Shown here: in pieces, positions 8,479-11,479 of the stretch
Layout: each line of letters starts with the position of its first letter
How positions within the stretch are numbered: the stretch's first letter is position 1
Source of the DNA: a virus
Lineage: Duplodnaviria > Caudoviricetes
Virus record (IMG/VR): IMGVR_UViG_3300029305_003110
Coordinates: 32,001-96,000 of that record
DNA: 64,000 nt
Direction: 5' to 3' (one strand)
Made by a program: the position numbers and the translations under genes
The notes under the pieces: generated by a model
What the model was told of the DNA's origin: nothing
The model's database searches: none
Seen by the model: only the letters and a program-made list of their open reading frames with translations

Positions 8479-11479
<3,001 letters not shown>

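Follow-up and report, generated by a model that had tools for sequence, protein, structure and literature searches.

The gene for the non-virion RNA polymerase beta subunit of a jumbo phage is interrupted by an intron (intron 2) that has an intact group I core and exact exon junctions, but in which only six nucleotides lie between P7 and the 3' splice site. Independent relatives that also lack P9, including introns that stand alone in their genes, are present in other phage genes. With a probability of about two in three, we regard intron 2 as a functional cis-splicing intron of the phage IA2-like type, belonging to a P2-less branch, that has lost the entire P9/P9.0/P9.1/P9.2 region and would work independently of intron 1, which precedes it in the same gene. 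That intron 2 is spliced, and the manner in which its 3' site would be chosen, are what we infer from the sequence. P9, P9.0 and the clamp between L9 and P5 are standard parts of group I introns and are important for the folding of the core and the choice of the 3' splice site. Natural phage introns without the whole P9 region are now found in the genes for RNA polymerase, PhoH and terminase, in three lineages and one probable further lineage.

Layout of the interrupted gene and anatomy of intron 2

The window, that is, the whole stretch of 64,000 nucleotides that was analyzed, corresponds to bases 32001-96000 of a viral record that is 209,768 bases long and has an estimated completeness of 85%. 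The host is an AR9-like jumbo phage, and the interrupted gene, on the minus strand, encodes the C-terminal half of the beta subunit of the non-virion RNA polymerase. A tblastn search with exon 3 found this half of the protein in AR9, PBS1 and related jumbo phages (about 30% identity), and exon 2 matches Pfam RNA_pol_Rpb2_6. In AR9, g089 is one uninterrupted gene, located immediately downstream of a UvsX-like recombinase gene. The segments of the gene in the window are as follows.

10334..11482, minus strand: exon 1; open frame in the ORF list, ends in ...GRQG, collinear with AR9 g089 and L008-L011
9906..10333, minus strand: intron 1; 428 nt, group I, RF00028 score 63.8 bits
9800..9905, minus strand: exon 2; 106 nt, NKGVISK...LGVVNR and the first base of a Leu codon
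9474..9799, minus strand: intron 2; 326 nt, with P1, P3-P8, the P5 extension, P7.1 and an enlarged P7.2, without P2 and P9
8479..9473, minus strand: exon 3; UG AAU UCC AUG ... to the stop codon, the first 7 nt being the exon strand of P10

The translation of exons 1, 2 and 3, joined by script, aligns with AR9 g089 and the homologues L008-L011 with no gap across both junctions; L008, for example, reads contiguously ...GRHGNKGV...LGVINRLNSMQ.... In an unspliced message, a stop codon would follow immediately after ...NR. Since the alignment to the five intronless homologues is free of gaps, the 3' site of intron 2 cannot lie further downstream, a possibility that the initial annotation had named as one that would overturn its reading. 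The site is set by three lines of evidence, namely the omega-G, a 7-bp P10 and the gap-free protein alignment; its earlier assignment by P10 (GAAUUCA/UGAAUUC) and the restored NRLNS motif thus holds. Viral and metagenome contigs searched at the protein level gave RNA polymerase homologues that were all intronless (L008-L014, 55% identity, a value that for L008-L011 refers to exon 3), and a second copy of intron 2 did not turn up among these contigs; intron 2 is known from one genome. A search for RNA sequencing runs that contain positions 8600-11300 of the window gave none. The parts of intron 2 and its exon partners are listed below.

9807-9800 / 9784-9777, minus strand: P1, AAAUCGUU / GACGAUUU, 8 bp, with a U.G pair at the splice site
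9791-9785 / 9473-9467, minus strand: P10, GAAUUCA / UGAAUUC, 7 bp, the intron strand directly 5' of the guide sequence
9673..9685, minus strand: conserved A-rich strand of the P5 extension, GUAUAGUAAAAAG
9610..9614, minus strand: P7 5' strand GACUA, inside CAACGACUAUCG, identical in intron 1
9516..9601, minus strand: region of P7.1 and the enlarged P7.2, ending in AAAUCGAAG; hairpins 9601-9573 and 9568-9516
9508-9491, minus strand (as read on that strand): P8 hairpin
9490-9485, minus strand (as read on that strand): J8/7, AAGAUA
9484-9480, minus strand (as read on that strand): P7 3' strand, UAGUC
9479-9474, minus strand (as read on that strand): whole 3' tail, UAAAAG, with the omega-G at 9474 as the first G after P7

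Reading of the minus strand and the alignment to RF00028 both bear out the earlier observation that UAAAAG alone separates the 3' strand of P7 from the 3' splice site. P2 is missing as well, the guide sequence being joined to P3 (CCUCUUG/CGGGAGG) by AAAA only, and P5 bears a three-way extension of about 90 nt. The unconstrained minimum-free-energy fold of intron 2 recovers P1, P3, P4, P5, P6a and P8, and none of 100 shuffled sequences was as stable (z = -2.64).

Intron 1 and the paralogous introns of the genome share with intron 2 an identical 5' strand of P4-P5, identical P7 strands and J8/7, the motif of the P5 extension, P7.1/P7.2 and a long P10; in intron 1, the whole P5 helix is also identical to that of intron 2. 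The long P10 is a family trait, with 8 bp in intron 1 (CCUUUAUU/AAUAAAGG) and 8 bp in intron A of Bacillus phage BpSp. However, two elements of intron 1 have no counterpart in intron 2, namely a P2 capped by a GUAA loop and a tail of 73 nt that forms P9, P9.1 and P9.2. The distance from P7 to the predicted omega-G was measured as 73 nt in each of the other three introns of the window, in agreement with the approximately 70 nt of P9/P9.1/P9.2 that had been estimated for them, and exon 2, with its 106 nt, places the P9 domain of intron 1 at the upstream distance previously given. Beyond the window, the genome has a fifth intron, in which the P9-P9.2 tail was seen by eye. Introns of this family with near-identical 73-nt P9-P9.2 tails lie at about 23363-23900 and about 32669-33200 of the window (both on the minus strand) and at about 15880-16050 of G000:C1 (minus strand); both of those in the window contain endonuclease-like ORFs, and that of the 23.4k intron looks HNH-like by eye.

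As for membership in group I, intron 2 has P1, P3, P4, P5, P6, P8, both strands of P7 (GACUA/UAGUC), J8/7, P10 and the terminal omega-G at 9474, and its removal restores the reading frame exactly, whereas the P9 hairpin or P9.0 is absent between P7 and the 3' end. The hallmarks of subgroup IA2, the phage type, are P7.1 and P7.2 between the 5' strand of P7 and the 3' strand of P3, together with P2 and with P9, P9.1 and P9.2. P7.1 and P7.2 are present in intron 2, but the extended 3' domain and P2 are both absent; intron 1 has them, as do, by script and by-eye reading, 52 of 57 distinct relatives. RF00028 aligns end to end with 9834-9474 at 45.3 bits, under the gathering score of 50, with an E-value of 6.7e-10 in a 1.7-kb search and 2.5e-8 in a search of the whole window. 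All 17 P9 positions of the model are deleted in this alignment, which, together with the absent P2, explains the score below the threshold. The terminase intron in L079 described below also scores below the threshold (48.5 bits), and the PhoH and L070 introns gave no match to RF00028 at E <= 0.01. Thus, routine annotation will call the genes that harbor such introns broken or split.

Relatives without P9 in other phage genes

By scanning viral contigs for a 17-mer that covers J8/7, P7 and the tail, we detected a PIN-PhoH gene (L019, L022) interrupted by an intron of 263 nt. This intron ends in the same UAAAAG tail as intron 2, shares its P5 extension, lacks P2 and has a P10 of 5 bp. The exons match the PhoH profile on both sides of the junction LPG|DL. 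This intron occurs in two complete phage records (G001 and G002) and in a contig from a Clostridia bin (L145). The copies are:

L128, 2281-2543, minus strand: P9-less intron of the PhoH gene
L129, 2262-3327, minus strand: P9-less intron of the PhoH gene
L145, 3679-3931, minus strand: P9-less intron of the PhoH gene

Identity among the three copies is 97-98% in the first 215 nt of the intron and 94-97% in the 3' exons; the G002 copy is set apart by a LAGLIDADG-type gene within P8 and the L145 copy by the length of P8, and the exons differ by 3-6%. Compared with intron 2, P3 and P8 of the PhoH intron carry changes on both strands with the pairing kept, and its P7.1 and P7.2 are small hairpins only. 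In G001, the upstream PhoH exon is an open frame of 285 amino acids, and the same stretch is contiguous in G002. In L145, a further intron, with P9, lies about 150 nt upstream, in the same tandem layout as in the window gene; this upstream intron sits in the Walker A codons, and its P7.1/P7.2 are nearly identical to those of the P9-less intron. In bacterial contigs, the 17-mer gave 50 matches, of which four passed a core-motif filter; of these four, only L145 is an intron.

Another P9-less intron interrupts the nuclease motif of the terminase gene.

L079, 3519-3868, plus strand: P9-less intron at the terminase nuclease motif, also in L095 and L096

Its tail is UAUAUUG, its P1 is CCCGGUU/GACCGGG, and its P10 has 10 bp. 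The junction GPG-F-HDDS matches residue for residue with the contiguous homologues L036, L070 and L212; in L079, the upstream exon is an open frame of 609 amino acids, and the intron is the only one in its gene. In introns of this type and in the PhoH intron, the first G to follow P7 is that of the splice site. In L070, the minus strand has a 488-nt intron at another terminase site, in the ATPase motif ARIFT.TPGDLD, with a 16-nt tail (UACAAAAAUACUGGUG), a good P1 and a retained P2 hairpin with a GUGA loop; the length of its junction agrees with L079. This is probably a further P9-less intron; we grade it as probable only because its P10 has just 3 bp and its omega-G is the fourth G after P7. 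In all of these relatives, the 3' strand of P7 is followed by 6, 7 or 16 unstructured nucleotides and then by the exon. Compared with intron 2, they lie in different genes and at different insertion sites and have tails of their own, and L070 keeps P2.

The frequency of P9 loss was estimated in survey A, in which viral contigs were scanned for the motif of the P5 extension (GUAUAGUAAAAAG) together with the 3' strand of P4 (ACAAUCCGCA). The scan gave 107 stretches with 108 matches. After exclusion of 22 matches that had no P7 motif within 2.5 kb or were too short beyond it, 86 matches were usable and represented 57 distinct 60-nt tails, of which 15 were judged by eye.

42 tails: GNRA-capped hairpin directly after P7, scored by script
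6 tails: GNRA-capped hairpin missed by the script (L049/050, L058, L068, L092/094/108, L124, L125)
4 tails: hairpin with another loop (L027, L048, L067, L082)
1 tail: false P7 hit (L041)
4 tails: tail straight into coding sequence (L019/L022, L079, L095/L096, L070)

By sequence reading, P9-less introns thus appear to be a recurrent minority that accounts for about 4 of 56 informative tails and, intron 2 aside, for three lineages (one of them probable). The initial annotation had also considered that introns without P9 might already be common in this subgroup: such relatives do exist, but, with 4 of 57 distinct tails, they are far from the rule. In survey B, a second motif scan that gave at least 116 stretches with at least 119 matches, 52 matches were without core motifs upstream and at least 60 distinct tails were kept; among the matches listed, no P9-less case was seen by eye, in a check weaker than that of survey A. 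Automatic hairpin and RNAfold filters for P9 were too lenient, as hairpins in exons passed them too, among them the one at the PhoH intron; the classification therefore rests on ORFs, homologue junctions and by-eye reading. A blastn search with the intron region and the PhoH and L079 introns against 50,697 phage records found shared core or P5 segments only. Several candidates were discarded: L017 has an ORF after P7, L039 and L088 are false P7 hits, and L182, L194 and L240 are chance matches within coding sequence. A relative in Bacillus phage SIOphi was inspected, and P9 is present in it. The SIOphi record (KC699836.1; L294, 4480-4845) has a P9-bearing group I intron of the P5-extension family between SIOphi_00165 and SIOphi_00170, in the tail-gene region, and no feature is annotated at this position of the record.

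The P9-less introns are not each other's nearest relatives in their 5' halves; therefore, P9 was probably lost independently in them, and a common origin of the UAAAAG tail of intron 2 and the PhoH intron is not supported. All of the P9-less examples come from metagenomic assemblies. A large P5 extension is shared by all of the P9-less cases, and a clear P10 by all except L070; however, the link between the P5 extension and P9 loss is not an independent one, since this extension was the search criterion of survey A.

No specific feature that compensates for the loss of P9 is apparent in intron 2. In the 5' half, its closest relative is an intron in a tape-measure gene of a viral contig (L038), which also lacks P2 and has the same P5 extension and an enlarged P7.2 ending in AAAUCGAAG, but which, unlike intron 2, keeps P9 (with a GAAA loop) and P9.1. 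We rejected the enlarged P7.2 and the loss of P2 as compensating features, since L038 has both and P9 as well. A hairpin in exon 3 directly after the omega-G, which pairs in 7 of 8 positions and could be taken for a surrogate P9, is attributable to chance (193 of 2000 shuffled sequences did equally well) and is absent from the intronless homologue L008.

Proposed choice of the 3' splice site and alternative explanations

In the proposed mechanism, the guide sequence would pair with the end of exon 2 in the 8-bp P1 with its U.G pair, and guanosine would attack there. For the second step, the 3' site would be chosen solely by the 7-bp P10 and the omega-G. This G, the first after P7, would be held on a 5-nt leash beside the P7 helix that forms the G-binding site, and such a short covalent tether to P7 would stand in for the anchoring of the 3' end by P9.0. 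Neither the P9.0 pairing nor the clamp of L9 to P5 would be involved; P9.0 cannot form in intron 2, because the bases after P7 are the very bases before the omega-G. Intron 1 would not be needed either. In the Tetrahymena intron, P9.0 was described from cryo-EM as extending P7 by 2 bp and anchoring the 3' end (PMC10020454, in the part consulted). According to the part of another Tetrahymena study available to us, loss of P9.0 or of P10 singly leaves the second step, and loss of both blocks it (PMC11417360), a result that would fit an intron dependent on P10. If the P9-less introns are spliced, P10 and a G tethered to P7 would suffice for selection of the 3' site in living systems, deletion of P9 would be a route taken repeatedly in evolution and would not be lethal, and these introns would be compact natural scaffolds for the engineering of ribozymes and circular RNA.

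The initial annotation left open whether intron 2 is a natural minimal ribozyme or borrows P9 contacts from intron 1 or from a protein cofactor. The existence of P9-less relatives fits the minimal ribozyme, and intron 2 is probably a working minimal variant that is not dependent on its neighbor. That the P9-P9.2 domain of intron 1, 106 nt upstream, docks on P5 of intron 2 and that splicing of intron 2 depends on it is improbable in our judgment. The P5 helices of the two introns are identical, and thus the L9 loop of intron 1 could in principle dock on intron 2; furthermore, the tandem layout recurs in L145. However, the P5 of intron 1 would itself need this L9 loop, the closest relative L038 carries its own P9 in cis, and neither the L079 intron nor the PhoH intron of G001 and G002 has a companion intron in its gene. 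As these introns are the sole ones in their genes, P9-less introns of this P5-extension family would appear to need no P9-bearing intron just upstream. Docking of the GAAA loop, whether in cis while intron 1 is still in place or in trans after its excision, has the same low probability. If it did take place, the two introns of the RNA polymerase gene would be removed in a set order and in dependence on each other, and L145 would be a second instance. Introns 1 and 2 are not a twintron, since the 106-nt exon separates them.

An alternative possibility is that intron 2 is not autonomous and is spliced only with the help of a phage or host protein that replaces the clamp of L9 to P5. We consider this unlikely, although both of the usual tetraloop clamps (L2 and L9) are absent from intron 2, and although, in the part available to us of a survey of Bastillevirinae introns, four of eight spliced genes were spliced only in infected cells, which suggests that protein help is common among phage introns (PMC11878797). 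No maturase-type ORF is present in or adjoining intron 2, and the P5 extension is retained as a large stabilizing domain. The endonuclease ORF of the 23.4k intron in the window looks HNH-like by eye, and maturase activity is not known for this class. It is also very improbable that intron 2 is a dead remnant and that the gene product is made in two parts, with a first polypeptide terminated by the UGA after ...NR and another initiated at the AUG of NSMQ. An AUG does lie 9 nt into exon 3, and RNA polymerase subunits of jumbo phages are already split into halves, as annotated in AR9. However, P1 (8 bp, U.G), P10 (7 bp), the omega-G and all of the core elements are intact, unlike in a relic; no Shine-Dalgarno-like sequence precedes the AUG in exon 3; and the break would cut the conserved NRLNS motif, uninterrupted in each of the five homologues. 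An assembly artefact, in which the P9 domain was lost by collapse of near-identical 73-nt intron tails, would be conceivable in a genome where four other introns have nearly the same tail, but it is extremely improbable. Such a collapse would yield the exon of another intron and not an in-frame exon 3 with a matching P10; UAAAAG is unlike the ends of the other tails; and the same architecture is found in independent assemblies, in the PhoH and terminase introns. Against a functional intron 2, its loss of P9 may be a recent, mildly harmful deletion, since intron 2 has been seen in one genome only.

Known systems and other features of the phages

The core of group I introns is said to act without the 3' peripheral helices in the 'miniribozymes' derived from T4 sunY, reportedly described by Doudna and Szostak in 1989, and in 3'-helix deletions of the Tetrahymena intron. 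These are laboratory constructs, whereas the loss in intron 2 is natural and lies in an essential gene. In the parts of the literature on natural P9-less introns and P9 deletions that were consulted, the mitochondrial rnl intron of Prasinoderma coloniale was the sole natural case, and phage relatives without P9 were not described. According to the part of the report seen, this group I intron was modelled without P9, and its authors suspect that a third piece is missing or that external factors play a part (PMC3873408). It is trans-spliced and organellar and belongs to subgroup IB, in contrast to intron 2, which is contiguous, has a defined 3' end and would act in cis.

RNA polymerase genes of jumbo phages are known targets of introns, and the 2025 survey describes, in the part available, Bastillevirinae introns of 173-3279 nt, genes with multiple introns, and exon skipping (PMC11878797). 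Clustered group I introns in conserved core genes of large phages, as in the window gene, are given there for Twort orf142, the SIOphi DNA polymerase and PhiPA3 RNA polymerase; in the sections consulted, these reports concern exon skipping or endonuclease-mediated competition and do not mention loss of P9 (PMC11878797).

Bacillus phage vB_BpuM-BpSp (KT895374.1; L002, 1780-3500) has three group I introns in the orthologous RNA polymerase beta gene, within about 50 codons of the same catalytic motif as in the window gene and displaced by 5 nt, 9 nt and 13 nt from the two insertion sites in that gene. A micro-exon of 14 nt, supported by an 8-bp P10, lies between two of these introns. In the BpSp record, the pieces of the gene are annotated as individual CDSs (gp155-gp158), among them a LAGLIDADG-like ORF that lies within the middle intron.

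Elsewhere in the window, two tRNA genes are located at 37034-37107 and 37151-37234 (plus strand), with Rfam scores of 59 bits each. Two adjacent paralogous ORFs, at 5722-6501 and 6556-7629 (minus strand), have identical N-terminal 60 residues followed by long V/Y/D-rich repeats of a short unit with a hexapeptide-like look, and this tract is much expanded in the longer ORF.
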